The notes under the pieces were generated by a model. That model did no database searches, had not been told where the DNA came from, and worked only from the letters and a program-made list of their open reading frames with translations. The position numbers were made by a program, and so were the translations under genes. A DNA stretch of 64,000 bases, taken from positions 32,001 to 96,000 of IMG/VR virus record IMGVR_UViG_3300048592_001371; one strand, 5' to 3'. The DNA is from a virus. Position 1 is the first letter of the stretch. Each line of letters starts with the position of its first letter. Shown here piece after piece: positions 13,108 to 30,429 of this stretch.

Positions 13108-13758
13108 ATGGGAATTCGTGCCATCATCAACAAGAAAACCGGGCGTCTGGTTTCGACCATAGCCGGGGACAGAACGTATGAAGCTTCTGCGGTTCTGGAA
13201 AGCAACCCGGATTTGCGCGTTCGCTACTTGAACGTCAAGCTCCCGACAGGTTACCGCCACGTCGACGCCTCGCGTTACAAGATCAATGCTCGAGGCGTGG
13301 TGTTCAAGTCGGCAGTGACTGCTGACGAAATCGTCGGCCTCCGTGTGGATGCGGCCAAGATTCGCGCTACAGCTCTGATCCGCACATTGGTCGAACTGAA
13401 ACGTCGGCCTCTGACCAAGAACTACACGCTGCAGGGTCAAACCTACCGCGAGAAAGCGTTGCAAGCCAAGGCCCTGAAAGACGCGCTTGTTGCCAATCCG
13501 GGAATGTCAGACACACAAGTCGAGGCCGTGGCACCTATGGTTCTCGACTACGCACGTCTGAAGGGCATTTCCAATTCGGCGGCCGCTGACGACATCTGTC
13601 TGAAGTGGGACGCGGTTCTGGCTACCGCGCGTACGACGGAGAACCAGCGCCAGACCTTCAACGAGCGCATCAAAACGGCGACTACAGAAGAAGAAGCTCT
13701 GGCTATCGAGCAAGAACTGCGCGACCTGATCACTGCCGCAACGCAGCCGGCCGCGTAA
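13108..13758 (+). CDS. Tail-fibre-assembly-like protein (paralogue 1)
   Basis: Motif Q..TY.EK...A...PM...A..KG.S...A..I...TE..R...I..A.T is shared with 20976, 25557, 27166 and 37227; strong RBS. Confidence 0.65.
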   Translation: MGIRAIINKKTGRLVSTIAGDRTYEASAVLESNPDLRVRYLNVKLPTGYRHVDASRYKINARGVVFKSAVTADEIVGLRVDAAKIRATALIRTLVELKRRPLTKNYTLQGQTYREKALQAKALKDALVANPGMSDTQVEAVAPMVLDYARLKGISNSAAADDICLKWDAVLATARTTENQRQTFNERIKTATTEEEALAIEQELRDLITAATQPAA

Positions 13759-13772
13759 TTCGTAGTACAACA

Positions 13773-13803
13773 AACGGGGTGGCTTTCCACCCCGTTACCT
13801 TTA
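13773..13803 (+). terminator. Intrinsic terminator-like hairpin
   Basis: Perfect 10-bp stem AACGGGGTGG-cttt-CCACCCCGTT followed by a short T-rich tract. Confidence 0.65.
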
Positions 13804-13814
13804 TTGGTACAGAA

Positions 13815-14543
13815 ATGTTGAGACTGTCCGAAATCTACAAACCTGTGTTCTCGGCAGATGATGTGAGACTGGTATCGGAAACATTCTGCCACTCACTCGC
13901 TCCCGGATACGCAGACATTATCGGCCGACTATCCAAAGGCCTGCAAGTCCGCTCTGCCTCTGATGCAGACCTTGACATGCTCAAGTATCTACGCGGACTT
14001 AACGTCCTCTCGTATGAGGACACTGCTCTCTCCAGCGAGAACCCACTCATGTACTGGCGCCTATTGGGTTACAGTACAGAGTACGTCCAGAAGCAAATCA
14101 AACACAATACAATTCGGGTACTAGGAGGGGACAACCCAGACATCGATGCCTTCTCAGAACAACTGGCCGCTCTGGGATGGACAATATGCGATGACAGTCG
14201 AGTACGGGTGATTCTGCTGAACAGCCAGGCTCAGATAGATGAAGCACTGTCGTTCTACGGTCTGCGTATGGCGACTATCCCAATAGTGCTAGATCGATTT
14301 CGCGCCTCAATTGGGCCGTTGTACTACCCCGGTTTGCTCGAATGGCCGAATCTGAGCAAACAAGCGGAAGCCTCTCCGGTCTACTTGAAAGAAGGGGCCG
14401 GACTGATTCCAGCGTACAAGTCGATTCAGCTAAGACTGGTTGCCTTGTACGTTGCAAGAATTCTGATGTGCCTTGAGGACATTGCGAGCTGTTTCCTAGA
14501 GCTCGATCTGACGACCATGCGAGTGAAGGAGCGACATGTCTGA
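13815..14543 (+). CDS. TOMM-type leader-peptide-binding / degenerate E1(ThiF)-like protein
   Basis: Motifs VRLVSE, YWRLLG...QKQI...IRVLG, SIGPLYYPG and C-terminal FLELDLTTMRVKERH parallel TOMM cyclodehydratase C-proteins. The usual Zn CxxC after GP...PG is missing. Confidence 0.55.
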   Translation: MLRLSEIYKPVFSADDVRLVSETFCHSLAPGYADIIGRLSKGLQVRSASDADLDMLKYLRGLNVLSYEDTALSSENPLMYWRLLGYSTEYVQKQIKHNTIRVLGGDNPDIDAFSEQLAALGWTICDDSRVRVILLNSQAQIDEALSFYGLRMATIPIVLDRFRASIGPLYYPGLLEWPNLSKQAEASPVYLKEGAGLIPAYKSIQLRLVALYVARILMCLEDIASCFLELDLTTMRVKERHV

Positions 14544-15450
14544 GATCACGAATTTCGACTTGTTCGTAGGGTACAATCAAAGGCCATGGACATTCTCTAC
14601 GAATCCTTCCGACAAGTTCATGGTCTGGTCGAAGCGCCTGAAGCGCAAAATCTTCCCCTTCCGAGACGAGCTAGCACAAGCGGCGCAAGAATTATCAGTA
14701 CGCGGACTAGGTCCCTTCTACGTTCTGTATTCTGGTGGCTACGACAGCGAAGCAATCCTAGCAGCCTTTCTGGAGAACGGTCTGCCTGTTGTCCCGATCA
14801 TGGTGCGATATACCGATGAGAGCAACTCGGAAGACTTTGAACACGGGCTAAACTACTTAGCCCACTACGAGATGTCTCCGATCATCTACGAGATAGATCT
14901 GGCGAAGTGGATACACTCACAGGAGTGTCGTGACCTAGCAGAGAAGGTGCAAGCCGGTGATCTAGCAACGACAGCCATCTACAAGGCTGTGCTAGATATG
15001 CCGCAACTGCGCGAAGGCTTCTTTATCATGGGTTTGCACGAACCAGCCATCTACGCCCAGGACACCGAAGAGAAGCGTGAATGGGTACTGCTGGAAGAGG
15101 AGAAGTGGTACGCACATCACAAATTCCTACTGGCCCACAATCTACGTGGGATAGGTGCCTTCATACACTACAGCCCGGAGCTTTACACGTCCTTCGTGGT
15201 CAATCCAGCGTACATGCGTGTGTATGCGAACATGTTCAATCCTGAGCTGTGGCAAGCCGAGTGGGTGAAGCATCAGTTGTTCTCAAAGTATCTGCGCTTG
15301 GAGCGTAGAGAAAAACGGACAGGGTTCGAAGCGATTCAAGGTGAGGTCAATCGTATCAACCACGAATGGATACGAGAGCACGAAGGATTGTGGGATAGGC
15401 ACTACGTGACGCCTGTCCTAGATTGGGTACGTGGAGTAGGCCACCTATGA
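14536..15450 (+). CDS. PP-loop ATP pyrophosphatase (adenine nucleotide alpha-hydrolase superfamily)
   Basis: VLYSGGYDSE PP-loop and C-terminal KRTGFE. Confidence 0.75.
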   Translation: MSEITNFDLFVGYNQRPWTFSTNPSDKFMVWSKRLKRKIFPFRDELAQAAQELSVRGLGPFYVLYSGGYDSEAILAAFLENGLPVVPIMVRYTDESNSEDFEHGLNYLAHYEMSPIIYEIDLAKWIHSQECRDLAEKVQAGDLATTAIYKAVLDMPQLREGFFIMGLHEPAIYAQDTEEKREWVLLEEEKWYAHHKFLLAHNLRGIGAFIHYSPELYTSFVVNPAYMRVYANMFNPELWQAEWVKHQLFSKYLRLERREKRTGFEAIQGEVNRINHEWIREHEGLWDRHYVTPVLDWVRGVGHL

Positions 15451-15905
15451 ATATAGTCAAGATCACAAACGACAAAGACGTGATGCGTCTCATGCTGGAG
15501 GAAAAGCGACCTCTGCAACAGGTCTTTGGCGTAGAGAACGTCATGCGCGGCTACACTGACGAGCAAAGCGGCTACTTCGGCGTCTACAAAGAGCTCTGTT
15601 TGTCTAGTGCCTATCAGTGCTCGGCTTGGTCTGATGTCCTGTTCGTACATGACATCGTTGGAGCAATTCAGGATGTCTGGTTGCACATACGAAACGGACG
15701 CAACTTTGTAGCATACGTCCGAAAGGGTAACATGCCGAGCCTGGGGGAGCTAGAAGGTCTGTTTGGCCTTCCCGTCTTCGCCAACAGCACACGGAATTTG
15801 GACTACGCAATGCTCCATTCTCTGTTCAACTACGTTCTTCCTCAAGAGAACGGTTACGTTATAGCGAGCCAAAAATGGGACATTCCATTGATGATAAGCC
15901 TGTAA
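15447..15905 (+). CDS. Hypothetical protein
   Basis: ATGA overlap with the upstream gene; 152 aa. Confidence 0.6.
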   Translation: MNIVKITNDKDVMRLMLEEKRPLQQVFGVENVMRGYTDEQSGYFGVYKELCLSSAYQCSAWSDVLFVHDIVGAIQDVWLHIRNGRNFVAYVRKGNMPSLGELEGLFGLPVFANSTRNLDYAMLHSLFNYVLPQENGYVIASQKWDIPLMISL

Positions 15906-16762
15906 TCATTTGCTCCTTCCCGAGGAGCGGCAGTACGTTGCTTCAACGATTGCTGAACACACATGACGATCTATGCATCTGGGGAGAGAACCTCGGTCTT
16001 CTGACAGCTATGCTAGACCAGATTGCAGCCTTGCGCTGGACGGGAACAGATCCCAAGACAGCGGCCCAAGTCAAACAATCTTCCGAATTTTCTCCGGTCA
16101 GCACTCCCTACACGGCTTTCGATCTGCAAGAAGCGTTCAAGAAACTCCTCGTCGGCTTTTACGCTAGAGGGTTGAAAGAGAATATACGCTGGGGCTACAA
16201 AGACCACAATCACTACTACCCATTCGATCTAATTGAGATCAACAAGATATTCCCCGGGGCTCAGTTCATCGTATTGAGAAGGAACGGTCCAGACTGTTGC
16301 ACGAAAGCTATATTGGCGCCTTGGGTGCGCGAGAAGATAGAAGGCACTCCGAGCCTGTTAGGAGTAGACGTGCGTGCCAGTATGGACAGCTTGGTCTCTT
16401 CCGTCATTCTCACCTATCTGCAATTCAACACCTTCGCTTCGAACGTCTACAAAAACAGAACAGACGTGAGGGTGATTGAGTACGAGGATCTGGTGCGAAG
16501 TCCTGAGCATGTGATCGAGCACTTGTCGCAATTCTTGAATCTACGGCAGGACGGCTGGAATATTGAAGCCTTCGAGACACAGCTATCAACGAAGCTGGGG
16601 AAAACGCCCAGTCAGGGAAGCTATGGCTTCATGACAGAAGAGTTGGTACGGGAGTACGTGGACAAGTGGTGGAGGAAACTGGTAGTAGAGGGCAACGTCG
16701 AACGGCGAGAGCGTGATCTTCGTTGGAACGTTGTGACGGGTAGACACTGGCGCTGGTACTGA
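15875..16762 (+). CDS. Sulfotransferase family protein
   Basis: ICSFPRSGSTLLQRLLNTH...GE, RWGYK, FPGAQFIVLRRN and IEYEDLV motifs. Confidence 0.85.
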   Translation: MGHSIDDKPVIICSFPRSGSTLLQRLLNTHDDLCIWGENLGLLTAMLDQIAALRWTGTDPKTAAQVKQSSEFSPVSTPYTAFDLQEAFKKLLVGFYARGLKENIRWGYKDHNHYYPFDLIEINKIFPGAQFIVLRRNGPDCCTKAILAPWVREKIEGTPSLLGVDVRASMDSLVSSVILTYLQFNTFASNVYKNRTDVRVIEYEDLVRSPEHVIEHLSQFLNLRQDGWNIEAFETQLSTKLGKTPSQGSYGFMTEELVREYVDKWWRKLVVEGNVERRERDLRWNVVTGRHWRWY

Positions 16763-16769
16763 GGAAATC

Positions 16770-17189
16770 ATGACTTCTGTTCGTGTATCGCAAGAGAAAC
16801 TGAAAACAGGCTCGCTGGACGTGGCGGAACTGGTTCTGGAAACCCAGCTCGATCTAGCGCGTAGAAACATTACCGCTGCGTACTTCCCAATACGAGAGGA
16901 ACTGGACGAGACATTAGTTCTGCGCGCCATGAACGGAGAACTGGCGGCTGTTCTCGTTTGGCGAAAGTATGTCGACTCTATCTGGATCATCATAGCAGCC
17001 GTGAAGGATGGCTTCCGAGGGCAAGGACTGCATCAACTGCTGCATCAAGAACTGGACAAGGTAGCGCGCCAACTTGGCATCGGCGTCATTGAGACGTATG
17101 TCGGGACAGAGAACAAATCAGTGCTGCGGTCCTACGAAAAGATGGGTATTACGCCACAGATGTACTACATCAAGAAAAAGGTGCCGTAA
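16770..17189 (+). CDS. GNAT acetyltransferase 1
   Basis: AVKDGFRGQGLH acetyl-CoA motif and ENKSVLRSYEKMG. Confidence 0.85.
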   Translation: MTSVRVSQEKLKTGSLDVAELVLETQLDLARRNITAAYFPIREELDETLVLRAMNGELAAVLVWRKYVDSIWIIIAAVKDGFRGQGLHQLLHQELDKVARQLGIGVIETYVGTENKSVLRSYEKMGITPQMYYIKKKVP

Positions 17190-18655
17190 TGCTGTTGGAG
17201 AACGTCGATCTGTTGCTCATTTCGGATTGCTACGAAACTCCGTATGTAAGGTATAGCGGCCCCTACGTCCTCGCTTCCTACCTTCGCAGGCATGGTCTGA
17301 GAGTGCAGGTAGTAGACTACTTTTCCCGCTTCACAGATACCGAGATAGAAACCATAGTAGACGTGTGCGTTGGCTCCAATACCAAGGCGGTAGGAGTATC
17401 GGATACATTCTCCGGCAAGCCCTTGCATGAGCTCGCAGATGGATCGACCTATGGTTGGCCCTTCTTCGAGAGGCATGACAGGATACGTCGCTTCATCGGC
17501 AATGTCAAGCGCAAGAATCCGAAAACGCGACTGTTGATGGGTGGGCAAAAGACCACTCAAGGACTAAGCGCCGGGTACATAGACACATACTTCCATGGGT
17601 TCGCCGAACAGTCACTTCTCGCTTATCTACAAAGCGAAGGACATGAAGTTCCACGTGTCGTCAAAGAAGCCACCATCCCGAATTGGAAAGACATCCCAAC
17701 CATTCATCACGAGTCCGACAACATCCTCGAAGGAGAAACGCTGCCGTTAGAAGTGTCTCGTGGCTGTATCTTCAACTGCAAATTCTGCTCATACCCCCGT
17801 CGAAATGCCAAGGACTTGAACTACATAAAGTCGGAGGAAGCTATCTACCAGCAGCTTCTGCACAACTATGAGCAATATGGCACTACCTGTTACACGCTAC
17901 TGGACGATACGCACAACGATTCGAAAGCCAAACTCGAAACCATTCGGAACGTTCTAGATCGTCTGCCGTTCAGCATCGAATTTGCTACCTATCTGCGGCT
18001 CGATCTGATAGCCAAAGATATGTCCACCGCGGAGTTGCTCATACGAAATGGACTACGTGGAGCCTTCTTCGGAATAGAGACACTACACAAGGAAGCGGGA
18101 CGACTCGTTGGAAAAGGCCTAGAGCCTGACGAAACGAGAAAGGCGCTGCGAAAATTACGGGAGTTGTGGGGAAACGAAGTAGGAACGCAAGGTGCTTTCA
18201 TCCTAGGCTTGCCGAAACAGCCAGAAGCTGATGTGATACTGATGTGCGAAGAGGTCTGCGACCCTTCCTTCCCGTTACATGGCCCAATATTCTTTCCGTT
18301 GATCATGTATCCAGGCAGGACAAATCCCTCACCGTTCGAGAAAAATCCGTCCCTATACGGGATACGCTTGGAGGAAGGGGATCGGCACGGGTATTGGCAT
18401 AATAGTGAAACCGGCATGGACTTCGAACGCGCGATAGAGATTCAAAACGAATACACGACGCGCATCTACCGCAATCACAGACGCCAATGTGGAGGTTTCT
18501 TGCCCATCATGGCAGTTAATCTAGGTATCAAAGCGCGGGACTTAATCGGCATGCCCGCGAGGGTCGCTCATAAGAAGTACAATATGCAGTCGAGGGAGTC
18601 TCCCTATTTGGCAAAGTACAAAGCAAAGGTTCTGGGAACAACGGAGGGGCAATGA
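17189..18655 (+). CDS. B12-binding (class B-like) radical SAM enzyme 1
   Basis: N-terminal GPYVLASYLR..G..V.VVD, SRGCIFNCKFC cluster motif, FFGIETL and FILGLP. Confidence 0.9.
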   Translation: MLLENVDLLLISDCYETPYVRYSGPYVLASYLRRHGLRVQVVDYFSRFTDTEIETIVDVCVGSNTKAVGVSDTFSGKPLHELADGSTYGWPFFERHDRIRRFIGNVKRKNPKTRLLMGGQKTTQGLSAGYIDTYFHGFAEQSLLAYLQSEGHEVPRVVKEATIPNWKDIPTIHHESDNILEGETLPLEVSRGCIFNCKFCSYPRRNAKDLNYIKSEEAIYQQLLHNYEQYGTTCYTLLDDTHNDSKAKLETIRNVLDRLPFSIEFATYLRLDLIAKDMSTAELLIRNGLRGAFFGIETLHKEAGRLVGKGLEPDETRKALRKLRELWGNEVGTQGAFILGLPKQPEADVILMCEEVCDPSFPLHGPIFFPLIMYPGRTNPSPFEKNPSLYGIRLEEGDRHGYWHNSETGMDFERAIEIQNEYTTRIYRNHRRQCGGFLPIMAVNLGIKARDLIGMPARVAHKKYNMQSRESPYLAKYKAKVLGTTEGQ

Positions 18656-19074
18656 AGGTAACATTCAGGACGGAGAAGGTATTTGAGTTGAACAACGAGG
18701 TCATAAAATTCATACTGTTGTCCTATGTCGAACTCCTGGATAGAAGTTTGTCCGGTATGGGAATTCCCTTCGCGAATACCGACGACGTTCTCATGGCTAC
18801 GAACGAAAAAGGGGACTTGACCGGCTGTATTGTGCTGAGGAAAACGAACGACGCCATCCCTACCTACTGGGTGATCCTAACGGCTGTGAAGCAAGAGTTC
18901 CGTGGTAAGGGACTGCATAAGCAAATGCACAGTCGCCTAGATGCGATTGCTCGGGCCAACGGCATCCAGTACATCTCATCCTACGTCTCTCCGAACAACA
19001 AGGAAAGCTTGAGGGCGTATGAGAAATTCGGCGCAGAACAGTCTATGATAAAGATCAACCGGAAGGTCTCGTAA
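18652..19074 (+). CDS. GNAT acetyltransferase 2
   Basis: AVKQEFRGKGLH and NNKESLRAYEKFG. Confidence 0.85.
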   Translation: MKVTFRTEKVFELNNEVIKFILLSYVELLDRSLSGMGIPFANTDDVLMATNEKGDLTGCIVLRKTNDAIPTYWVILTAVKQEFRGKGLHKQMHSRLDAIARANGIQYISSYVSPNNKESLRAYEKFGAEQSMIKINRKVS

Positions 19075-20540
19075 TGCTGTTAGAGAACGTCGACTTGCTA
19101 ATCGTTAGCGATTTCGCCAATCCCATCTACAAGTCACGCTACAGCGGTCCATACGTTCTCGCCTCCTACCTTCGCAGATTGGGTCTGCGCGTTCAGATAG
19201 TTGATTACATCTCCGAATTCTCGGACGAACAACTGCGGGATATCGTAGACGTTTGTGTCGGGAAGAATACCAAGGCCGTTGGCATTTCTGACACCTTCAG
19301 TTACTTCCAGACACACATGAACGCCAATCGAGTGAATGAGTTCACGATAGCGGGTTGGCCTTTCCTACGAGAGGAGCGGATCAAGGCCTTTGTCGCTAGA
19401 ATCAAGGGTATCAACCCCGATACGCAGATCATCATGGGTGGTGCTAAGTCGACGCGCTTCGATCAACCCGTTCCCTACGTAGACGTTCTATTCAGAGGAT
19501 TTTCCGAAGCGTCCCTAGCAAAGTATCTGATGTCCCGTCACCTGGGTTTGAACAGTTCGTCCTTCGTCGAGGAGCTTCCGATAGATGATTGGATAGACAC
19601 GGTCACTCATATGAGTCCGGAAGACAACCCCTTGGTCAACGAAACCGTTCCTTTGGAAATCTCCCGCGGATGCATATTCAACTGTAAATACTGTTCATAC
19701 CCACGTAAGGGAGCGAAGGACTTCGATTACATCAAGACGGAGGAATCGCTCTACCAAACGCTCTTTACGAACTACTCGGAGTTCGGCATTCGTCGCTACA
19801 TGCTGACGGATGATACGCACAACGATTCGATGTTCAAGCTTGAGCGCTTGCATCGCGTCACTCAACGGCTTCCCTTCAAGATCGAGTATAGCTCGTACAT
19901 CCGAGTCGACTTGCTTCACCGCTATCCTGAGATGATAGACCTGTTGAAAGAGATAGGTCTGAAAGGAGCGATGATGGGGATAGAAACCTTGAATTGGGAA
20001 ACGGGCAAGATAATCGGCAAAGGATTGCAGCCTAAGAAAACGATTGAAACGCTCCAGCTCTTACGTGAGAAGTGGGGCGACACGATCGGTACCCAAGGTA
20101 TGTTCATTCTTGGTTTGCCGCGCCAATCATACAAGGATGCTATCGCGATGTGTGAACGCATAAGCGCAGAAGACTTCCCATTGCATGAGGCACTATTCTT
20201 CCCTCTGTATTTCTTGACCCAGGCTCGCGTCAAGTCGGCTTTCGATATGGACTACGAAAGTTTCGGGTACAAGGTAGAGGGAAAAACGTGGGTCAACGAT
20301 CAAGGGATGACGTCCGAACAGGCAACAAAGCTGGCTAGGTATTACACGAACAAGAACAGAAAGAGCGGGCGTGAGAAGTTCGGTGGCAATCTGCCATTAC
20401 AGCTAGCCAATAGCGGATATGTCGTCGACGACTTGATAGGGAAACCGTTGGGCTCGTTTTTCGAGTCTGAGGAAGCAAAGGGACGCACTACTGAATATGT
20501 GCGTCGATACAAACGAAAACTTTTTGACGTAGAGGAATGA
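19074..20540 (+). CDS. B12-binding radical SAM enzyme 2
   Basis: SRGCIFNCKYC; paralogue of 17189. Confidence 0.9.
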   Translation: MLLENVDLLIVSDFANPIYKSRYSGPYVLASYLRRLGLRVQIVDYISEFSDEQLRDIVDVCVGKNTKAVGISDTFSYFQTHMNANRVNEFTIAGWPFLREERIKAFVARIKGINPDTQIIMGGAKSTRFDQPVPYVDVLFRGFSEASLAKYLMSRHLGLNSSSFVEELPIDDWIDTVTHMSPEDNPLVNETVPLEISRGCIFNCKYCSYPRKGAKDFDYIKTEESLYQTLFTNYSEFGIRRYMLTDDTHNDSMFKLERLHRVTQRLPFKIEYSSYIRVDLLHRYPEMIDLLKEIGLKGAMMGIETLNWETGKIIGKGLQPKKTIETLQLLREKWGDTIGTQGMFILGLPRQSYKDAIAMCERISAEDFPLHEALFFPLYFLTQARVKSAFDMDYESFGYKVEGKTWVNDQGMTSEQATKLARYYTNKNRKSGREKFGGNLPLQLANSGYVVDDLIGKPLGSFFESEEAKGRTTEYVRRYKRKLFDVEE

Positions 20541-20541
20541 C

Positions 20542-20976
20542 ATGGAACTAAAAATCCATAGTATTTCCATCATGCGCGTGTCAAACGATGTGCTGTCATT
20601 CATCCTTCGTACAATGGCCGATTTGGTAGAGGACGGACACTCGGGAAGAGGAATCGCTGTTACCAATGCGGACCACGTAGTCGTAGCAAGGCGTTCTGAC
20701 AATGGCGAACTCGTAGGAGTGCTTGTCTACGTAATAAATAGGCCGAAGGATTTGCTGTGGGTAAATCACGCCGCCGTCAAAGAGCAATATCGCGGACAGG
20801 GGATACATCGAAAGATGCATGCGATGCTCAAAGACATCGCCCGAAAGGAGAATGTCTACGAAGTTGGTTCCTACGTCTCTATTGAAAACAGGGCGAGTGT
20901 AGGGGCGCACAGCAAACGACCCGGCGTCAAGTTCCCAATGATGCGAGTATCCGTGCCCGTTACAGAGGACAAGTAA
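20542..20976 (+). CDS. GNAT acetyltransferase 3
   Basis: AVKEQYRGQGIH and ENRAS. Confidence 0.85.
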   Translation: MELKIHSISIMRVSNDVLSFILRTMADLVEDGHSGRGIAVTNADHVVVARRSDNGELVGVLVYVINRPKDLLWVNHAAVKEQYRGQGIHRKMHAMLKDIARKENVYEVGSYVSIENRASVGAHSKRPGVKFPMMRVSVPVTEDK

Positions 20977-21602
20977 TGAAACAATTCCGACGATTTTGGT
21001 TCTGCGTTGATCTACGCGACAATACTGTGCTGTATCTGGAGCACGACTTCGGTCACAATCAGCCTCCTGGAATAGACCCGGAGGCAAACGTCTTCCCTCT
21101 TGCGGGTATGTTCCCGACCGATTTTACACCGGCGACGTGTGCGAAATTCGAGTACGTCGATGGGGCACAAGTAGCATTGAAGAAGGAGAAGCTAACCCAG
21201 CGCCAAAGTCTGTTGCGCCAAAAATACGTAGCTTTGGCAAAGATCATGAAAGTGGTCTACTGGGGCAGAACGAAGGTCAACAAAGGTTGGCTGCAGCAGG
21301 ACGCCGTCTACAAAATGAAGTTGGACGCGGCTGTTGCCTATCTCAACAAAGAAGAGAATCCTCCGGGCCTAGCAATGCTGCAACATGAAGCCGATTTGCG
21401 GAAAACGACCGTCTATGCGATGGCGAAAGCAATAACCATCGCGGCGCAGGATAACGAGCGCATCCTGATCGACACGGAGAACTTTCGTCAGGAGTGGACT
21501 CAAAAAATCCGAGCTTGCTCAAGTCTGCTAGAGCTGCAGCAAGTGATGGATACTCTCCGCAGCGAAAGCTACATTCCGGTCACTATGGGGTTCCTGCAAT
21601 GA
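20976..21602 (+). CDS. Tail-fibre-assembly-like protein (paralogue 2)
   Basis: QDAVYKMKLDAA...MLQHEADLR...AKAI...TENFRQ motif. Confidence 0.65.
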   Translation: MKQFRRFWFCVDLRDNTVLYLEHDFGHNQPPGIDPEANVFPLAGMFPTDFTPATCAKFEYVDGAQVALKKEKLTQRQSLLRQKYVALAKIMKVVYWGRTKVNKGWLQQDAVYKMKLDAAVAYLNKEENPPGLAMLQHEADLRKTTVYAMAKAITIAAQDNERILIDTENFRQEWTQKIRACSSLLELQQVMDTLRSESYIPVTMGFLQ

Positions 21603-22621
21603 AATTCCTCGTCTTCCAACCAATGCCGAATACGGCGCACAAAGGACTGGCCCAGACACAGGTGGTGATAGGGAACTGCAATTCTCCGATCTCTCGTCTG
21701 AACCGATTCAAGACAGGGGACGTGCTCGATTACAAGTGCGTCTACCCAATCTTGGATTTGCGGACGGATATCAAAATGGCGGATCCGTTCGCCGAGTTCG
21801 ACGCGGCAATGTTGGCCGCGGCCGGTCGTATTCGAGACTTCTCCGAGAAGAACAATGTTCCTGTTCACGTGATGTGGAGCGGCGGTCTAGACAGCACCTG
21901 TGCCTTGGTAGCCCTTGTTCGGGCTGGCGTCCGACCGGTTGTGTTCTTGCATGGATATTCGATCCACGAGAACCCAACAATGTTCTACCAATTCGTCAAG
22001 GACTACGAAGTAGCACACGTCCGAGACACGGACAGGCTGTTCTCCGGGGCCGTTGTTATGGGTGAAGCCGGGGATCAACTCTTTGGTTCGGACATGATGA
22101 TCAAAATGCACAGGCGAGACCTGTTCGCTCCGAATTGGAAGGACTCGATCATCAACAATCTGAAAGAACGCGGACGCAGTCTTCTGGATACATTCTTGCC
22201 TATAGTGGATGAATGTCCACGACAGATCGAGTGTGCGGCCGATTTCTTTTGGTGGTGGAACTTCTCGCAGAAGTCTCAAGCGGTAGCTCTGCGCTACTTG
22301 ATAAACGCGAAGGATCCGGCGGACGCGGCCACGCGCTGGAGCCCTATCTTCATGGACAAGCAAATCCAGGAATGGTCGTTGAACGCACCGAGAGAGGCAA
22401 AGATCGATCCAAGCGTTGGCGTACCTAGCTACAAGCTGGCCATTCGTCGGTTCATTTCCAAGTACGCCAGCCCAGATTATGTACTGCCTTCGAAGATAGG
22501 TAGTTTGTATCGGACAATGATCATCTCGCAGCACAAACACCCCGCACTCGATGAGAACTATAACAAGGTGTCTGCGCTCGATGTCGACAAGCAACTACAC
22601 GTGAATTGGAGCTTCGCCTAA
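21599..22621 (+). CDS. Asparagine-synthetase-like PP-loop ligase lacking the glutaminase domain
   Basis: VMWSGGLDST and GEAGDQLFG motifs; ATGA-coupled start at 21599. Confidence 0.8.
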   Translation: MKFLVFQPMPNTAHKGLAQTQVVIGNCNSPISRLNRFKTGDVLDYKCVYPILDLRTDIKMADPFAEFDAAMLAAAGRIRDFSEKNNVPVHVMWSGGLDSTCALVALVRAGVRPVVFLHGYSIHENPTMFYQFVKDYEVAHVRDTDRLFSGAVVMGEAGDQLFGSDMMIKMHRRDLFAPNWKDSIINNLKERGRSLLDTFLPIVDECPRQIECAADFFWWWNFSQKSQAVALRYLINAKDPADAATRWSPIFMDKQIQEWSLNAPREAKIDPSVGVPSYKLAIRRFISKYASPDYVLPSKIGSLYRTMIISQHKHPALDENYNKVSALDVDKQLHVNWSFA

Positions 22622-24078
22622 TGCTGTTGGAGAACGTTGATCTACTGATCCTTAATGAGTTCTCTGATCCGTACTTCAAAGTGAGGTACTCGGGACCTTA
22701 CGTGCTTGCTTCGTACCTGCGTAATCGAGGATACCGTGTTCAAATACTCGACTATGTTTCGCATTTCACGGATGCTCAGTTGGTAAAGGCGCTACGAGTA
22801 TGCGTCGGCCCGAAAACGTTGGCTGTTGGCCTAGCCGGAACCTTCACGGTTTCCTTGAAGGCGACGTATTCGGCCAAGGATACGCCGGAGGCACGTACTG
22901 GATGGCCACTATGTCAGCCACGGCGCATCGACTTGTTCCTCGACACTGTACGGTCTATCAACCCAGAGACAAAGATCATCATGGGTGGGCATAGACACGG
23001 GTATGACTACCCGAGAGACGTGGACACCCTGTTCTTGGGGTTTTCCGAGGTATCTCTGTTCAATTACCTCGAGACTCTAAGAATAAACAACAGCTGGGTT
23101 CCCAAAGTCGTCCAGGAAGAAAAGCAAGAGGGTTGGAACAGAGACGTTTTTCTGTACTCGGAGGAGGACAACATCCTTCCCGGCGAGACGCTGCCTCTTG
23201 AGATTTCTCGCGGTTGTATTTTCAACTGCAAGTATTGCACGTATCCAAGACGCGGGGCGAAGGATTTCACCTACGTCAAAGACGAGGATGTGATACGTAC
23301 TCAACTGTCACACAACTATGACAAGTTCGGGGTTCTGAATTACACGCTGACGGATGACACACACAACGACACTGAAGAAAAACTGAAACGTCTCATTCGT
23401 GTTCAGAAGGAGTTGGGCATTCAAATACGCTATTCGGCGTATGCTCGTCTGGACCTCATTCATACCTTCCCACACACCGCGGACCTTCTATTCCAGGCCG
23501 GTATGCGTGGTCCCATGTTTGGCATCGAGACGCTGAATTGGGAAGCCGGGAAGATGATTGGCAAGGGCTTGCACCCAGACAAAGTCCGTGCGACATTGCA
23601 CCGACTACGCGCAGAATGGGGAGACGAAGTAGGCACGGAGGGGATGTTCATTCTCGGCTTGCCTAAGCAAAGTCGGTTAGACATGGTACGAATGGCCAAG
23701 GAACTGATGGATCCTTCGTTCCCTTTGCATTACGTGATTTTCTACGCCCTGATCATACAACCGTTGAAGGAAGACTCGGCCTTCAATCGAGAACCCGAGA
23801 AGTTTGGGTACGATACTTCAGTCAAAGCGGCGGGGAACTGGGTACGTGATGATGGTTTTACTGCTGACGAAGCGCGGCAGATGCAAATACTCTATACCAA
23901 TCAGATGATCGAGACGCAGCGAAACAAGTTTGGTGGTGTTCTACCGTTCTTGGTATCGAACGGTGGACGCTCTCTGCAAAGCATGATTGGAAAGCCATTG
24001 GAGTTGTCGCAGCGTGATTACATTGACGCGACACGCTACATGGAACGTTATCTAGCCAAGGTGTTTTCGGAGGACTAA
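22621..24078 (+). CDS. B12-binding radical SAM enzyme 3
   Basis: MLLENVDLL start as in paralogues 1 and 2; SRGCIFNCKYC. Confidence 0.9.
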   Translation: MLLENVDLLILNEFSDPYFKVRYSGPYVLASYLRNRGYRVQILDYVSHFTDAQLVKALRVCVGPKTLAVGLAGTFTVSLKATYSAKDTPEARTGWPLCQPRRIDLFLDTVRSINPETKIIMGGHRHGYDYPRDVDTLFLGFSEVSLFNYLETLRINNSWVPKVVQEEKQEGWNRDVFLYSEEDNILPGETLPLEISRGCIFNCKYCTYPRRGAKDFTYVKDEDVIRTQLSHNYDKFGVLNYTLTDDTHNDTEEKLKRLIRVQKELGIQIRYSAYARLDLIHTFPHTADLLFQAGMRGPMFGIETLNWEAGKMIGKGLHPDKVRATLHRLRAEWGDEVGTEGMFILGLPKQSRLDMVRMAKELMDPSFPLHYVIFYALIIQPLKEDSAFNREPEKFGYDTSVKAAGNWVRDDGFTADEARQMQILYTNQMIETQRNKFGGVLPFLVSNGGRSLQSMIGKPLELSQRDYIDATRYMERYLAKVFSED

Positions 24079-24942
24079 ATGTATTGGAACAGGTTGTTTG
24101 ACGACGTGGTTGACTTCACCCAGCATCGGTATTACTCACAGTTCGAGAATCTGAAATCCACGAACCCGCAGAATTTTCGCTGCGACCCACTAGCCCCGAG
24201 TCCTGTTCTTTTCTTGGGTTCCTGTGACATGGGTGGTCCTGTCAATAACGCAGACGAAGTGTGGCCGCGACGCGTGTATAGAAAACTATGTGAGTCGCAG
24301 GGGCGGTTCCCGTACATGGCTTTGTCCAAGATCAGCTCTGGACTAGAAGCCACGTTGCGTCGACTGTACATCTACTGCGAACTCGTAGGTCCGCCGAAAG
24401 TGCTCTATATGGTCATGCCTCGGCCAGTAAGCATTGAAATTCCTGTGAAGCGGTCGATGACAGATCCTCTCGTTGGAGTAACGGACATAGAGCGATACTT
24501 GACGTTCCTCGGCAAACTCCCAACAATCACAACCGAAGAGGTGTTCCTCTTCAAGAAGATTTCTGAGGTACTGATCGGTTTGTCTGAGAATGAGTCGTAC
24601 CAACTGTACCAGTTTGAAAAAGGGACCGCCTTCTTGCAGACGCTCTGTCGTTTGCACAATATCGAGTTACGCTGGACGCCCAATCTTAGTGCCACTGCCA
24701 TAGAGTACTACGCCAAATACTTTTCTCTGTTCCTGAGGGAGAATGATTTCATGCGGCAGACGTGTCTGGGTGTTGGCAAGGCTCTGGATTTCTCAGGCGA
24801 CGGATCTGTGGGCGACGAGACACAGGGCGTTATCGCTAATCTGATGCTGGATGGCAAACCCGGTGAATTTTCTCTAGACGCAACAAAGAAGCAGCTGGTC
24901 GAGAACTTGGAATTCAAACGCACAACCCTGGAGGAAAAATGA
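24079..24942 (+). CDS. Hypothetical protein, possibly a degenerate SGNH-hydrolase-like fold
   Basis: VLFLGSCDMGG...VWP...ALSKISSG...P.VLY.VMP resembles SGNH blocks I-III. Confidence 0.45.
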   Translation: MYWNRLFDDVVDFTQHRYYSQFENLKSTNPQNFRCDPLAPSPVLFLGSCDMGGPVNNADEVWPRRVYRKLCESQGRFPYMALSKISSGLEATLRRLYIYCELVGPPKVLYMVMPRPVSIEIPVKRSMTDPLVGVTDIERYLTFLGKLPTITTEEVFLFKKISEVLIGLSENESYQLYQFEKGTAFLQTLCRLHNIELRWTPNLSATAIEYYAKYFSLFLRENDFMRQTCLGVGKALDFSGDGSVGDETQGVIANLMLDGKPGEFSLDATKKQLVENLEFKRTTLEEK

Positions 24943-25547
24943 TACCACTACACGTAGCAAATCTCAATACACGGGACTATGTCCATGGCACGTCTATCAT
25001 GACAGGGCTGACGCGCTTCCTACTAGAAAATCACGATACCGTAACGGAATTCACCTTCCGTCTGTACAAGAAGCTCCTGACTTTGCCGCTACTGAGCATT
25101 ACCGAGAAACAGGTCGACAATCCAAAGGACTACGTCGCTACGGGTTCCTTCATGGGAAACGGCTCGCAATGGTTCTTCCAAATTCAGCCTTCAGTCCTTC
25201 CCGTGGAGCACGTTCTGCACATTGACGAGTCCGCTCTAGTAAATAGGATAGAACTGAGAGGAGACAGGTACGTCATAGACGTTGAAGAAAAAGACGACGT
25301 CTTTGTCACCTGGAATGCCATATCAAAGACGCACAACCTGAGAGTGTTCAGCGAGCTCGGCGTGACAAAGCCGGGTGGCCAGACATGGCTAACAGGACAA
25401 ACATTCAAAGACTTGTCCTTCTTGAGAACTCGGCCTGCGACATTGGGAAATTCGGTCGCGTTTCAGAGACTGTCCGAGCGCTGTATCAAACATGACATGT
25501 ACTACGACGAGGCAATAGTCGGAGACAAGACTATAGTCTATGCCTAA
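24939..25547 (+). CDS. Hypothetical protein (RDYVHGT motif)
   Basis: GGAGG RBS and ATGA overlap; function unknown. Confidence 0.6.
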   Translation: MIPLHVANLNTRDYVHGTSIMTGLTRFLLENHDTVTEFTFRLYKKLLTLPLLSITEKQVDNPKDYVATGSFMGNGSQWFFQIQPSVLPVEHVLHIDESALVNRIELRGDRYVIDVEEKDDVFVTWNAISKTHNLRVFSELGVTKPGGQTWLTGQTFKDLSFLRTRPATLGNSVAFQRLSERCIKHDMYYDEAIVGDKTIVYA

Positions 25548-25556
25548 GGGGACATA

Positions 25557-26165
25557 ATGCTGCAACTTGCTATCGATGTGACGGATGGTACGGTCATATA
25601 TGCCTTACCGGATGCGTACCGAATCTGCATGCCCAAATTGCGGACATGGATAGAAAACATCATACTCGATGTTCGGCTTCCCAAGGATTTCCCGATACGC
25701 GCATTAGGTTCACAGAATTTTGTCCGTATAGGGCTGGAAATTCAACGACGGGTGGATAGCGTCCCGGAAGCAGCTATGCTTCTGAATCTGAAATACCACT
25801 CCGTGGACAAAGTGAACATGCTGGTTAATGGACATCGCTTTGCAACGATGAACAAGTTGCTGTTGCAACCACGAGTGTACGAGCTAAAAATAGCGGAGGC
25901 TGAAGCCGTATTGAAGTCGGGCTCCAGTTTGGAGCCCGTAGAAAACGCGCCTATGCTGATAGAGGAAGCAAAAGCGCGGGGCCTATCTGTACGAGATGTT
26001 GCCAAGACTGTTCTACTGGCCAGAGACGATCAGGACGACATGCTGAAAAGGACGGAAGGTATGCGAATATCCGCCACTATTCGCATCTCCGAGGCAAAAA
26101 CACCGCAAGAGGTTTTCGAGATAATGTCGGGCTTCGAGGAAAGTTTCCACAACCGAGGCCTATGA
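25557..26165 (+). CDS. Tail-fibre-assembly-like protein (paralogue 3)
   Basis: QPRVYELKIAEA...PMLIEEAKARGLSV...AKTV...TEGMR. Confidence 0.65.
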   Translation: MLQLAIDVTDGTVIYALPDAYRICMPKLRTWIENIILDVRLPKDFPIRALGSQNFVRIGLEIQRRVDSVPEAAMLLNLKYHSVDKVNMLVNGHRFATMNKLLLQPRVYELKIAEAEAVLKSGSSLEPVENAPMLIEEAKARGLSVRDVAKTVLLARDDQDDMLKRTEGMRISATIRISEAKTPQEVFEIMSGFEESFHNRGL

Positions 26166-27169
26166 TGAGACCGTTGATCTACATAGGTACTCCTAGATAT
26201 CGAAACAGGGTTTTGCGTACTCTGTACCAAGTTCTGCATATCGACGTACCGATGTCTCGTTGTGCTTATCAGGAGTGCAACGTCGTCCCAGTCAGTCATG
26301 CTTTCCCTTTGATGTCCGAACATCGAATAGCGCCGTGTGCCCAGCCGCTTTATGAATTAGAACGCTTGGTCCTAGACAGGGCGACACAGCTTGTGTCGGA
26401 ATCGTCTCAGACGGGAAGGCCCATTTGCGTTAAATACTCCGGTGGTCTGGATAGTATGTTGGCACTCCTGGCCTTCGAACGAATTTCCGCAGAATACAAA
26501 GTCTTCCTGACGCCCAACTCCATCAAAGAAAATCCCACCGTCTTCAAAAAGTTCATTGCCCATCGTGAGTATTTTCACGCGAACGACCCTTCTGTCTTTG
26601 ACGGGCTCGTGATAACAGGAGACGGAGGGGATGCTCTATTTCTAGACGCTATCGTTAAAGGGCCGCAGATGAGGCATGGCGATGCGGTATTGGACTGGGA
26701 CTGGAAAGACGGTTTCGTGAAGGGTATGTGGGGCACGCCAGAAGAGAACAAGTTTGTCTTGGGACTACTAGAGCCGGCGATGCACGATTGTCCCTGGCCA
26801 GTGAAGACGGTTCGGGACTTCTTCGCTTGGACTGGCCTAGCGATCTTCTACCAACCGGAAGTATTGCGTTGGCTTCCTACACTACAGGATCCAAAGAAGA
26901 ACTGGCCTTGGGTCCGGCCGTTCTTTGCAACGAAGGAATTCGTGGAGTGGTCTCTTGGGCAAGAGCCGAAAATCAAGTATCCAAGTACGTCTGACTACAA
27001 ACCAACATTCCGAAAACTGTGTGAGAAATTTTCGGGACTGGATCTATCGGACATGAGGAAAGACTTCTCGCTAGGTAAGACGAGGGGTGCTGCTCCTATG
27101 GTGGTAGGCGTGATGGAAGACTTGACACACGTCACCACCGAAGGAATCGAAAAACTGGTAAAGGAATGA
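26162..27169 (+). CDS. Asparagine-synthetase-like PP-loop ligase
   Basis: VKYSGGLDS and GDGGDALF motifs. Confidence 0.8.
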   Translation: MMRPLIYIGTPRYRNRVLRTLYQVLHIDVPMSRCAYQECNVVPVSHAFPLMSEHRIAPCAQPLYELERLVLDRATQLVSESSQTGRPICVKYSGGLDSMLALLAFERISAEYKVFLTPNSIKENPTVFKKFIAHREYFHANDPSVFDGLVITGDGGDALFLDAIVKGPQMRHGDAVLDWDWKDGFVKGMWGTPEENKFVLGLLEPAMHDCPWPVKTVRDFFAWTGLAIFYQPEVLRWLPTLQDPKKNWPWVRPFFATKEFVEWSLGQEPKIKYPSTSDYKPTFRKLCEKFSGLDLSDMRKDFSLGKTRGAAPMVVGVMEDLTHVTTEGIEKLVKE

Positions 27170-27801
27170 ATATGGGCGCTCCGAATCTCTATCAACTCGC
27201 GGTTGATACACACGACAATACCATCATCTATGCGATGCCGGAAAGTTATCGGTTGTCCCTGCCAGATTTGAGAACCTGGGTGGAGAACAAACTGTTCTAC
27301 GGAAGCTTGCCTGAAGGCTTTCCAATACGCAATCTGGATAGTCAAAAGTTTGTGCTATCTGAGGGAAAGGTCCTAGCACGGAAGGACGAGGTTCGGGAAG
27401 GTGTCGCTTTGCTGAACGTGAAGTATTGGGCGATCGATCAGGTTCTAATGATCATCAACGGACAACGCTTCGCGGTAACAAACAAGCTGTTGATGCAGGA
27501 TAGGATATACGAGGCAAAGGTCGAGGAAGCGCGTCTGATTCTGGCAAGACAAGACGAGGAGCTCAGGAAGTCACACTTTGAGACATCTTGTCCTATGCTG
27601 TATGCTGAGTCCGAGGACAAAGGACTGAGTCTAAACGTCGTAGCAAAAACAGTGATGGTAGCATACGAAGAACAAATGTCTCGCTTGAAGAAAACGGAGA
27701 TCATGCGAATGGCGATAACGAACAAAATCGCCAATGCCGAGACAGAGGAACAAGTTCGGGCTCTGTTGAAGGACGTCAAACTCTATTTCTACACGAGATG
27801 A
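27166..27801 (+). CDS. Tail-fibre-assembly-like protein (paralogue 4)
   Basis: Close paralogue of 25557 (NG.RFA..NKLL.Q.R.YE.K..EA). Confidence 0.65.
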   Translation: MNMGAPNLYQLAVDTHDNTIIYAMPESYRLSLPDLRTWVENKLFYGSLPEGFPIRNLDSQKFVLSEGKVLARKDEVREGVALLNVKYWAIDQVLMIINGQRFAVTNKLLMQDRIYEAKVEEARLILARQDEELRKSHFETSCPMLYAESEDKGLSLNVVAKTVMVAYEEQMSRLKKTEIMRMAITNKIANAETEEQVRALLKDVKLYFYTR

Positions 27802-28805
27802 AACTCCTCAGCTACCACAACAATCCGATGTTCAAGAACAGGACGTTGAATACATTCTTCAACGTGCTCAACGTCGAGGCACCTATGTCTAGGTGTTCTT
27901 ACCAAGGATGCAATGTCCTACCTGTTCATCACTTGTTGCCTCCAATGTCGGAGTATGCAATACGTGTCGTTTCGCAGCCGGGTGCCGAGCTGGAGACGAT
28001 AGTCGAAGCAAGGGTGCGCGAGCTGGTCAACGAAGCACGCCAATTTGATCTGCCAATTCACCTCAAGTACTCTGGTGGTTTGGACAGCCTGCTCGTGCTG
28101 CTCATGTTACATAGGTGTGACGCGGATTTCGTTGTCTATCTGACTCCCGATTCCATCAAAGAGAACCAAGACGTATTCAAGAGATATGTCTCGAACCGAG
28201 ATTTCAAACACGTCAATTGTCCTAGTCTGTTCGACGGACTGATAATTTCAGGAGACGGGGCCGATGCTCTGTTCATAGACATGCTGGCAACAAGCGTAGT
28301 TTCCAAACACGGAGAGACGTCCTTGGATTGGAAATGGGAAGAAGGCTTTGTGAAAGGCATGTACGGAACGGAACAAGAGAACAACGAAGTGCTCGAATTG
28401 CTCTTTCCCGCTCTCGACGAATGTCCTTGGGAGGTAGAGACAGTTCGGGACTTCTTCGCTTGGACTGGCCTAGCGATCTTCTACCAGCACGAGACGTATC
28501 GTTGGCTTCCGACCATGCCTAATCCGGCAGAGAATTTCGCGCGCTTCCGACCGTTCTTTCCAACGAAGGATTTCGTCGAATGGTCTTTGGGACAGGAAAC
28601 GAAGGCCAAGTTTCCGAGCTTCACCGATTACAAACCGGCATTTAGGAAGCTGTGCGAAAAGCTAACGGGTCTTGACTTTTCCTACATGCGGAAAGACTTT
28701 TCGCTGTGGAAGACCGTAGCAGGTAATCGTCTGCATCCCGGTGTCAAAGATGATCTCTCGATTGCAACTATCGAAGAAATAGAACAGGCCGCTATCTATC
28801 CATGA
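27798..28805 (+). CDS. Asparagine-synthetase-like PP-loop ligase
   Basis: LKYSGGLDS and GDGADALF; tandem paralogue of 26162 with the same 335-aa length. Confidence 0.8.
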   Translation: MKLLSYHNNPMFKNRTLNTFFNVLNVEAPMSRCSYQGCNVLPVHHLLPPMSEYAIRVVSQPGAELETIVEARVRELVNEARQFDLPIHLKYSGGLDSLLVLLMLHRCDADFVVYLTPDSIKENQDVFKRYVSNRDFKHVNCPSLFDGLIISGDGADALFIDMLATSVVSKHGETSLDWKWEEGFVKGMYGTEQENNEVLELLFPALDECPWEVETVRDFFAWTGLAIFYQHETYRWLPTMPNPAENFARFRPFFPTKDFVEWSLGQETKAKFPSFTDYKPAFRKLCEKLTGLDFSYMRKDFSLWKTVAGNRLHPGVKDDLSIATIEEIEQAAIYP

Positions 28806-29908: not shown

Positions 29909-30429
29909 ATCATGGACGCGTACTGTGGCTGACAGGTTTGAGTGGGTCGGGCAAGACCACTCTGGCTTGGGCACTTGACGAATTCCTACAACGCAAAGGA
30001 ATTGCTACTTCTGTCATCGACGGAGACGAGATACGCAAAACCCTGTGTAAGGATCTGGGGTATACGGCGGAGGACAGAACAGAGAACCAGCGGCGCATCG
30101 CAGGACTGGCGAGAAAACAAGCCGATCTCGACCTCACAGTAATCGTGGCCACCATCAGCCCGAGATTCAAACATCGGGTACTGGCCGAAGAGATAATCCA
30201 CCCGATCGACTTCTACGAAATCTACCTAGCCACTCCCCTCGAAGAATGCGAGAGGCGCGATCCGAAAGGGATGTACGCCAAAGCCAGAAGAGGGGAGATC
30301 AGTGCCTTCACCGGAGTTACCGATCCGTATGAGGAACCCGAACACCCCGATGTGAAAATCCCTCCGTCTTTCTCCCTCCGAGAAGCACTTCAAGCAATCG
30401 AACGGTCTGTCCGTTTCACGATTCTCTAG
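29905..30429 (+). CDS. cysC: Adenylyl-sulfate (APS) kinase
   Basis: LWLTGLSGSGKTT, DGDEIR..L..DLGY...DR.EN..R, RDPKGMY.KA..GEI..FTG..DPYE.P. Confidence 0.95.
   Translation: MNHGRVLWLTGLSGSGKTTLAWALDEFLQRKGIATSVIDGDEIRKTLCKDLGYTAEDRTENQRRIAGLARKQADLDLTVIVATISPRFKHRVLAEEIIHPIDFYEIYLATPLEECERRDPKGMYAKARRGEISAFTGVTDPYEEPEHPDVKIPPSFSLREALQAIERSVRFTIL

Follow-up and report, generated by a model that had tools for sequence, protein, structure and literature searches.

Why would a phage carry a protein that resembles the leader-binding partner of a YcaO cyclodehydratase, and why would its gene run straight into that of a PP-loop ATP pyrophosphatase? This question is raised by a gene at positions 13815-14543 on the plus strand of a 64,000-nucleotide stretch of viral DNA (hereafter the window; positions 32,001 to 96,000 of the IMG/VR virus record IMGVR_UViG_3300048592_001371). 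The gene, read from a stop-free open reading frame (ORF), encodes a 242-aa protein (P0001) that an earlier note, made from the letters alone, had interpreted as an orphan leader-binding, E1-like protein of the kind found in thiazole/oxazole-modified microcin (TOMM) pathways, coupled to a PP-loop enzyme instead of YcaO. All four motifs quoted in that note are present in the translation (LVSE, residues 19-22; YWRLLG, 80-85; SIGPLYYPG, 165-173; and LELDLTTM..K.H, 228-241), and they go beyond chance, because an alignment of 12 family members shows full or nearly full conservation of residues inside them (S21, E22, W81, G85, G167, P168, and E229). What appears to be new at this locus is a YcaO-less, C-protein-type E1-like scaffold that is tied to a clade of QueC-like PP-loop enzymes in large phages, as judged from gene neighbourhoods and a predicted structure.

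The arrangement of the two genes was confirmed in the sequence. The PP-loop gene begins at an ATG at position 14536, preceded by the Shine-Dalgarno-like sequence GAAGGAG, and the stop codon of the E1-like gene occupies 14541-14543, giving the overlap noted before, of 8 nt. A competing database gene call begins the PP-loop protein at M29; we preferred the start at 14536 because G12 and Y13 of the long-form N-terminus are invariant in all four orthologues. The overlap and the Shine-Dalgarno-like site point clearly to translational coupling of the two genes. In the 56-nt gap that separates the E1-like gene from the upstream gene for a 216-aa protein, a consensus scan found a terminator-like hairpin (13773..13796, plus strand; 10 pairs, 7 of them G-C, with a loop of 4, followed by ACCTTTATTG), which suggests that the E1-like gene may open a new or attenuated transcription unit. 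Strains that are 95-99% identical to positions 13108-16762 are found on contigs of sediment and bioreactor-sludge metagenomes from two other studies, and one 1,704-nt contig from another study bridges the junction of the two genes. Among the best-supported strain differences (175 others lie outside this set), 10 of the 14 inside the E1-like gene are synonymous. Because these differences are mostly synonymous and 13 columns of the family alignment are invariant, the comparison clearly identifies the E1-like gene as a real gene under purifying selection. One strain variant has lost short stretches immediately upstream of the hairpin and gained 3 nt after position 15450. No RNA data set carrying this region was listed; two sequencing runs labelled as RNA-Seq contain it, in short pieces only, and are flagged as probably DNA.

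We found that the tie between the two genes extends beyond this phage. The closest relative of the E1-like protein, P0002, and the PP-loop orthologue P0029 (69% identical) are each encoded on a 74,660-base contig, and the clusters of the E1-like protein P0005 and the PP-loop protein P0036 have members on six size-matched contigs (3742, 18227, 5143, 2641, 1299, and 20659 bases), the 1,299-base contig carrying fragments of both (74 aa of one cluster and 251 aa of the other). In the related viral records L100 and L101 (the latter near-identical to L102), the E1-like and PP-loop genes lie 2.1 kb and 1.7 kb apart, respectively. A scan of viral contigs returned 144 relatives of the PP-loop protein, of which 78 loci were kept, and a quick maximum-likelihood analysis placed 74 PP-loop proteins in a tree: 60 from viral loci (at least 230 aa, with identical copies and shorter proteins left out), 4 paralogues from the window, and 10 from databases. 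All five PP-loop proteins with a link to an E1-like gene fall within a single clade of 14 (SH-aLRT 98), and five of the six clade members with visible surroundings have an E1-like gene. Outside this clade, an E1-like gene was found within 10 kb in none of the remaining 75 PP-loop loci, and the same was true of all 98 loci that surround B12-radical-SAM genes or other PP-loop genes; overall, the E1-like gene accompanies none of 155 other PP-loop or radical-SAM loci. The genetic tie drawn in the earlier note is therefore real and conserved, as seen from clade-specific co-occurrence, shared contigs, and the overlap, and the co-occurrence of the E1-like gene is, on these comparisons, demonstrably specific to one PP-loop clade.

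The identity of the E1-like protein itself comes from structure prediction. By sequence, P0001 has no match in Pfam (E ≤ 10), NCBIfam (E ≤ 0.01), PHROGs, or PADLOC, and the TOMM, Ocin-ThiF, ThiF, PqqD, and RRE models in Pfam, NCBIfam, and PHROGs do not match it. Searches of the sequences in the PDB by phmmer and by profile returned noise only, tblastn against isolated phages and a word-index protein search gave nothing useful, and a contig scan with A7 yielded only a 21-residue match in one metagenome-assembled genome (L103). When 1.84 billion representatives were searched exhaustively with HMMER (E ≤ 0.001), 10 proteins emerged, of which P0002 (240 aa) is the closest at 49% identity and eight others (217-247 aa) are 24-32% identical to P0001; P0003, a phytoplasma protein of 1,455 aa with 16 matched stretches, is probably a repeat artefact and was left out of the alignments. 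With two extra relatives from viral contigs, the alignment comprises 12 rows (21-49% identity) and has 13 invariant columns: E22, L39, W81, Q94, L117, G121, S137, P156, R161, G167, P168, Y190, and E229; H97 and R163, in the E1-like domain, are nearly invariant. The family is small, and all of its known members come from metagenomic and large viral contigs.

AF2 gave a pLDDT of 34.9 on the single sequence, and a pLDDT of 81.5 (pTM 0.72) with a multiple sequence alignment of 10 rows. Foldseek matched the resulting model to 55 PDB entries at E ≤ 0.001, headed by the heterocyclases LynD (6.7e-15) and TruD (7.5e-13), the microcin B17 synthetase subunit McbB (3.6e-10), MccB (2.3e-8), PaaA, ThiF (7.8e-6), and MoeB. 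VIA-align, an aligner independent of Foldseek that we ran against 48,161 chains, likewise ranked LynD best over residues 1-242 (Z 13.8), with an rmsd of 7.6 Å, so the relative placement of the two domains is uncertain. Residues 1-68 (13815..14018, plus strand) match solved winged-helix domains of the RiPP recognition element (RRE) type, RiPPs being peptides that are made on the ribosome and modified after translation; the matches are TbiB1 (Z 7.7), TigE (7.1), lasso B1 (6.9), the PbtF RRE (6.7), ThcOx (6.7), and PqqD (5.6). Residues 73-242 (14031..14543, plus strand) match the ThiF/MoeB fold, with MccB (Z 10.5), PaaA (9.9), NAE1 (9.8), and MoeB (9.7) in front. In addition, the ESM Atlas, working from its own model, scores TOMM leader-binding clusters at 0.93 and matches the N-terminal part of a YcaO-fused protein at a TM of 0.78, and BFVD holds weak ThiF matches only, the best being a crAss001 protein (E 1.4e-4, TMq 0.34). 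Structural matches of both the RRE and the ThiF-like type were thus found, the N-terminal half of LynD and TruD being best and McbB following, so that the predicted structure upholds the RRE and E1-like fold of the earlier note; its assignment of the protein to the TOMM/E1-like class stands by predicted structure and finds no counterpart among the sequence models. Together, these matches support well a two-domain RRE plus E1-like fold and suggest that the protein corresponds in structure to the "C protein" by which azoline cyclodehydratases bind the leader.

The E1-like domain is a shortened one. It comprises about 170 aa, some 70 residues under the ThiF and MoeB chains (240-244), and neither a CxxC nor a GxGxxG motif was found in P0001. 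Its cysteines are residues 25, 125, 219, and 226, which agrees with the earlier statement that the zinc-binding CxxC is missing. The segment after the first strand reads TIRVLGGDNPDID, and on inspection of the family alignment the other members are likewise not Gly-rich at this place. With no GxGxxG motif and a β1-loop that is not Gly-rich, the model clearly indicates a domain devoid of a functional ATP site.

The PP-loop neighbour (14536..15450, plus strand) is a predicted ATP pyrophosphatase of 304 aa with the motif SGGYDSE at residues 66-72, and it is weakly QueC-like. The SGGxDS motif is kept in all four orthologues and in 77 of the 78 family loci scanned. PADLOC reports a QueC match at E 9.5e-5; the Pfam QueC model (PF06508) scores 15.5-15.9 bits, under its 22-bit cut-off, and there is no invariant cysteine among the orthologues, the cysteines of the QueC zinc site not being seen. 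From the sub-threshold score and the lack of a zinc cysteine cluster, the enzyme appears to fall outside canonical QueC. Profile matches in the PDB are to PP-loop enzymes only and none is significant (NAD synthetase, 0.032; nitrile synthetase; GMP synthase; Cap9, E 2.4), and the Atlas places the protein in a viral family that resembles Asn_synthase clusters in structure (TM 0.65-0.66); the evidence for its family is weak, and all of one kind (PP-loop/QueC-like). No match to the PP-loop genes, a radical-SAM gene, or a phrog_21671-like gene was found by tblastn against isolated phages. We considered the N-terminal extension of the PP-loop protein as a clade-specific docking peptide and rejected this, as a region of 47-111 aa (median 56) occurs family-wide. 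When the E1-like protein (A8) and the PP-loop protein (A9) were co-folded, the scores were 0.32, 0.31, and 0.30 (the mark being 0.32) and three controls scored 0.00 each, which speaks neither for nor against binding.

The other half of the question is the missing cyclodehydratase. The source record is an IMG/VR "provirus" of 123,553 bases, trimmed out of a 207,582-base contig and estimated by CheckV to be 50% complete, and no match to YcaO (PF02624) at E ≤ 1 was found in it, nor in any of the three related viral records that carry a family member (176.9, 133.9, and 105.5 kb; 72, 37, and 29% complete). The same search was positive as a control in 7 of 14 genomes. The earlier observation of no YcaO in the window thus extends to all four viral records at this threshold, all of them incomplete.

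The E1-like gene heads a 17-kb enzyme island that lies between tail-fibre genes and a spanin-like gene. Upstream of it, the 216-aa protein (13108..13758, plus strand) is a distant paralogue of three phrog_21671-like proteins, each of which precedes a PP-loop paralogue elsewhere in the island. There are four gene pairs (13108-13758, 20976-22621, and 25557-28805) in which a phrog_21671-like gene (about 200-216 aa) is followed by one for an SGGxDS PP-loop paralogue, and in the first pair the E1-like gene is placed between the partners. No known fold or PDB relative was found for the small phrog_21671-like partner, and we rejected it as a relative of the E1-like protein (hhalign probability 0.1). 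Downstream, the ATG of a gene for a 152-aa protein with no family match (15447..15905, plus strand) overlaps the PP-loop stop codon (ATGA); its similarity to the 143- and 144-aa products encoded after the E1-like gene in L100 and L101 is not significant (hhalign E 0.087). Family matches in the rest of the island (15875..30429, plus strand) provide context: it holds a sulfotransferase, three pairs of GNAT and B12-radical-SAM genes, an Orn/DAP-type decarboxylase, an APS kinase, and the three further PP-loop paralogues with phrog_21671-like partners. The three B12-binding radical-SAM proteins of the GNAT pairs (16770-24078) have 488-490 aa, are mutually 45-48% identical, and start with MLLENVD; their family recurs often in viral contigs, where one scan turned up 89 relatives, and it usually lies amid FA_desaturase-like, Asp/Asn-hydroxylase-like, TauD, and PhyH genes. 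Two Sulfotransfer_3-type sulfotransferases (4863-5639, in the tail-fibre block, and 15875-16762) accompany the APS kinase (29905-30429), and these genes suggest sulfation of some target that depends on 3'-phosphoadenosine 5'-phosphosulfate.

The corresponding region of L100 is syntenic with the window, with a tail fibre, a tail-collar fibre, a phrog_21671-like gene, and then the E1-like gene; a relative of the 216-aa protein is encoded two genes upstream of the last. The enzymes of L100 and L101 are different ones: 2-oxoglutarate oxygenases resembling prolyl 4-hydroxylase (P4H), three Asp/Asn beta-hydroxylase-like proteins, TauD, PhyH, and FA_desaturase-like proteins, adjoining small (VGTP)n-tailed proteins, a collagen-like fibre, and a Pro/Thr-rich protein. 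The P4H-like oxygenases and the proteins next to them, which bear (VGTP)n tails, Pro/Thr-rich linkers, or collagen-like repeats, lie at 9296-9985, 6142-6534, and 8192-8701 in L100 and at 7686-8324, 4086-5243, and 8387-9958 in L101, a juxtaposition that suggests phage-encoded prolyl hydroxylation of fibre proteins, and the presence of Pro-rich proteins beside prolyl-hydroxylase-like genes in these relatives would favour proteins as the substrates. Comparable islands that have no E1-like gene are common in viral contigs. From these comparisons, the E1-like/PP-loop pair is apparently a rare addition to a widespread and variable phage island. The inference in the earlier note that the cluster acts on peptide or protein substrates is not supported for the cluster as a whole: the island is mixed, and its type usually occurs without an E1-like gene.

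Several further features of the window lie among its fibre genes. The sequence DPYAWQAGGG ends both a 715-aa tail fibre (8831-10978) and a 145-aa protein (12623-13060), which are also similar over about 30 residues before it, and three L100 proteins end in VGSPVG after (VGTP)n repeats; in genome G002 no shared C-terminal tail was found. We examined the Gly-rich tail DPYAWQAGGG as a general E1-type substrate and rejected it, as ORFs ending in Gly show no enrichment (5 of 140, 20 of 256, and 12 of 162); the idea of a substrate carrying this tail may be limited to this phage. A gp38-like adhesin and a beta-propeller protein (3239-4021 and 5661-6662) share the N-terminus MLLxPxxFWxPEV, and at least five fibre paralogues (positions 22106-42978 of the genome) have in common a module of some 100 aa at the N-terminus, found in L100 too. 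Elsewhere, a Tad2-like protein and a homologue of Tad6 (type I Thoeris inhibitor, E 6e-35) at 53260-53811 and 61431-61988 belong to counter-defence, and the 558-aa product of positions 33398-35074 contains the catalytic core of a topoisomerase IB of eukaryotic type (phrog_23460, E 1.6e-100; Pfam, E 4e-24). Grouped together are also a QueD-like gene (43744-44217), a phosphoribosyltransferase gene (47374-48033), and a QueE-like gene (48042-48830), which we take to be a possible route to a 7-carboxy-deazaguanine nucleotide; canonical QueC and TGT/DpdA were not found in the 123,553-base record.

What could such a pair do? Known systems that bear on this include the C-terminal adenylation carried out by MccB, the McbBCD architecture, and the trio of E1-like, PP-loop, and ubiquitin-like proteins that takes part in tRNA thiolation. 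The C proteins of azoline cyclodehydratases (McbB, and the N-terminal domains of LynD, TruD, and PatD) have the same layout of an RRE followed by an E1-like domain with no ATP loop. Unlike them, the phage protein is shorter (242 versus about 264-300 aa), has no CxxC zinc site, is not matched by their sequence models, is phage-borne, and has a PP-loop enzyme as its conserved neighbour, with YcaO neither fused nor encoded in the four records. The Ocin-ThiF-like partners of thiopeptide and heterocycloanthracin pathways, such as PbtF, are likewise stand-alone, RRE-bearing, ThiF-like proteins and only bind the leader peptide, a concept set out in PMC12596934 (the PbtF RRE matches phage residues 1-69 at Z 6.7), but as described they serve YcaO, and their NCBIfam models give no match to the phage protein. 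MccB and PaaA also combine an RRE-like clamp with an E1-like domain, but they bind ATP and adenylate the peptide themselves (PMC12596934), and their ATP loop has no counterpart in the phage protein. The same paper describes ThiF-like domains that only bind peptides, and does so only alongside YcaO.

Closer parallels to the enzyme half of the pair come from PP-loop enzymes that an RRE steers to a ribosomal peptide, as with FzmA of the fosfazinomycin pathway and lasso cyclase with its B1 RRE. This type activates a carboxylate for an amide- or hydrazide-type bond (PMC13622209): FzmA, an asparagine-synthetase-like enzyme with a fused RRE, puts hydrazine on the carboxylate of the C-terminal Arg of a 22-aa peptide, and discrete RREs accompany its enzyme cluster in 79% of cases (PMC13622209). 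The B1 RRE of the lasso system matches phage residues 1-67 at Z 6.9. In those systems the RRE is PqqD-like and fused or free-standing, whereas the phage RRE is part of an E1-like protein; moreover, these enzymes are larger, whereas the phage enzyme has 304 aa, which would leave little room for a glutaminase domain, and is nearer to QueC than to AsnB by sequence. QueC-like PP-loop enzymes that act on a protein held in a complex are represented by Cap9 (type IV cyclic-oligonucleotide-based antiphage signalling system, CBASS) and by QatC with QatB, and both Cap9 and QatC target protein N-termini (PMC13279940). These are host defence systems in which the partner is the substrate, with an N-terminal Gly motif, and not an RRE/E1-like protein. 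The inference of the earlier note that an RRE-bearing scaffold here serves an ATP-dependent enzyme other than YcaO fits the genetic tie, and it is less new than was implied, as RREs with asparagine-synthetase-like enzymes are already described (PMC13622209).

We tentatively favour the explanation that the E1-like protein is a non-catalytic scaffold that recruits a peptide segment for an adenylating PP-loop enzyme with an amide-type product. In a small group of large phages, the RRE/E1-like protein would then partner a QueC- or asparagine-synthetase-like PP-loop enzyme in place of YcaO. The winged-helix RRE would bind a short segment of a ribosomal peptide or protein, and the E1-like domain, with no ATP site of its own, would dock on the PP-loop enzyme and position the substrate. 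The PP-loop enzyme would spend ATP to adenylate a carboxyl group, either the C-terminus or an Asp or Glu of the bound peptide or a small acid that is later joined to a peptide amine, and an amide-type bond would be formed. Physical binding of the two proteins, a peptide as substrate, and the chemistry of the pair are what we infer, and the likeliest substrates would be the virion fibre-associated proteins that are encoded just upstream. A more specific version, which we consider doubtful, is a YcaO-independent, RiPP-like module of large phages in which a QueC-like PP-loop enzyme receives from the scaffold part of a virion fibre protein encoded by the phage itself and ligates something to it, possibly deazaguanylating a structural protein; the ligated group might be a 7-deazaguanine carboxylate from the phage QueD and QueE.

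A number of observations weigh against the favoured explanation. Adjacency of the two genes is not universal, as three to four genes part them in L100 and L101; most of the large PP-loop family occurs without an E1-like partner; and one clade member, L160, which sits on a long branch, comes from a 389-kb record that is 98% complete and has no E1-like family member. The fold assignment comes from a structure predicted from 10 sequences, with no match to an RRE, ThiF, or TOMM model, and the invariant polar residues Q94, S137, R161, Y190, and E229 could mark an active site and not a passive scaffold. On the substrate side, short precursor-type ORFs, for which the earlier note had proposed to look, were not found in the gaps beside the E1-like gene or in the gaps of L101 (ORFs of at least 20 aa), no peptide common to the three phages was seen, and C-terminal Gly tails are not general across the ORF sets compared.

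These points bear on four other explanations. The separation of the genes in L100 and L101 would suit a general adaptor, by which the E1-like protein recruits substrate for several tailoring enzymes of the island, such as oxygenases, the sulfotransferase, radical-SAM enzymes, and GNATs, and the PP-loop gene is one neighbour among them. Discrete RREs do so in multi-enzyme RiPP pathways, and the E1-like gene sits in enzyme-rich islands whose content differs from phage to phage. We nevertheless consider this unlikely, as the PP-loop clade was the sole gene family found to accompany the E1-like gene throughout the three phage islands and on the small contigs, and the same island enzymes are present at the 98 and 75 other loci without it. 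The invariant polar residues, with the nearly invariant H97 and R163, raise the alternative of a catalytic E1-like protein, that is, an unusual ThiF-like adenylyltransferase akin to MccB and PaaA that would itself modify the C-terminus or a side chain of a peptide, while the PP-loop enzyme works independently of it; MccB and PaaA are indeed among the best matches of its second domain. Against such an enzyme stand the lack of a Gly-rich loop in P0001 and its family, the roughly 70 residues by which the domain is shorter than ThiF and MoeB chains, and a Pfam ThiF model that gives no match even at E ≤ 10, and we regard it as highly improbable.

Two alternatives remain. In one, the pair acts on a nucleobase, a nucleotide, or nucleic acid, with the QueC-like enzyme converting the 7-carboxy-7-deazaguanine (CDG) supplied by QueD and QueE and the winged helix binding nucleic acid. 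The phage does encode QueD, the phosphoribosyltransferase, and QueE with no canonical QueC or TGT found in its record, this PP-loop gene is the sole QueC-like match there, and E1-like tRNA-modification enzymes appear in the fold list at Z 5.5-5.6. Yet QueD and QueE were found in none of the three related records that carry the pair (29-72% complete), which weakens the case for deazaguanine as an explanation that holds in general, although CDG from the host could take its place there. Moreover, the best matches of the N-terminal domain are peptide-binding RREs, the whole protein superposes best on LynD, and the PP-loop orthologues have no conserved cysteine for a QueC zinc site, all of which leaves this alternative distinctly unlikely. 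The other alternative is a host-directed role, in which the E1-like protein redirects a host YcaO or acts as a decoy for a host peptide or E1-type defence component. Its fold is that of a YcaO partner in viral records where YcaO was not found, and the phage has other counter-defence genes in Tad2-like and Tad6; we still judge it very unlikely, since it leaves the conserved linkage and translational coupling to the phage PP-loop gene unexplained and PADLOC gave no match for the E1-like protein.

The fold itself, and the guidance of a PP-loop enzyme by an RRE, are already known. In the literature that we found, YcaO enzymes are the only partners described for leader-binding E1-like proteins. A 2025 review of ThiF-like enzymes lists no leader-binding partners other than YcaO, and its main text does not contain phage, PP-loop, or QueC; in the main text of a QueC-family survey from 2026, none of the words ThiF, E1-like, RRE, and viral occurs. 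We found no published description of the E1-like/PP-loop phage pair in the literature, where supplements may hold neighbourhood tables. If the conserved pairing is true, a leader-binding scaffold would be reusable by a second class of ATP-dependent enzymes, and the pairing would give a handle on a very large family of phage PP-loop enzymes, with its 144 relatives in one scan. The pair suggests an undescribed route by which phages modify peptides or their own proteins, and such phage-encoded post-translational chemistry, located beside the tail-fibre genes, may affect host recognition.

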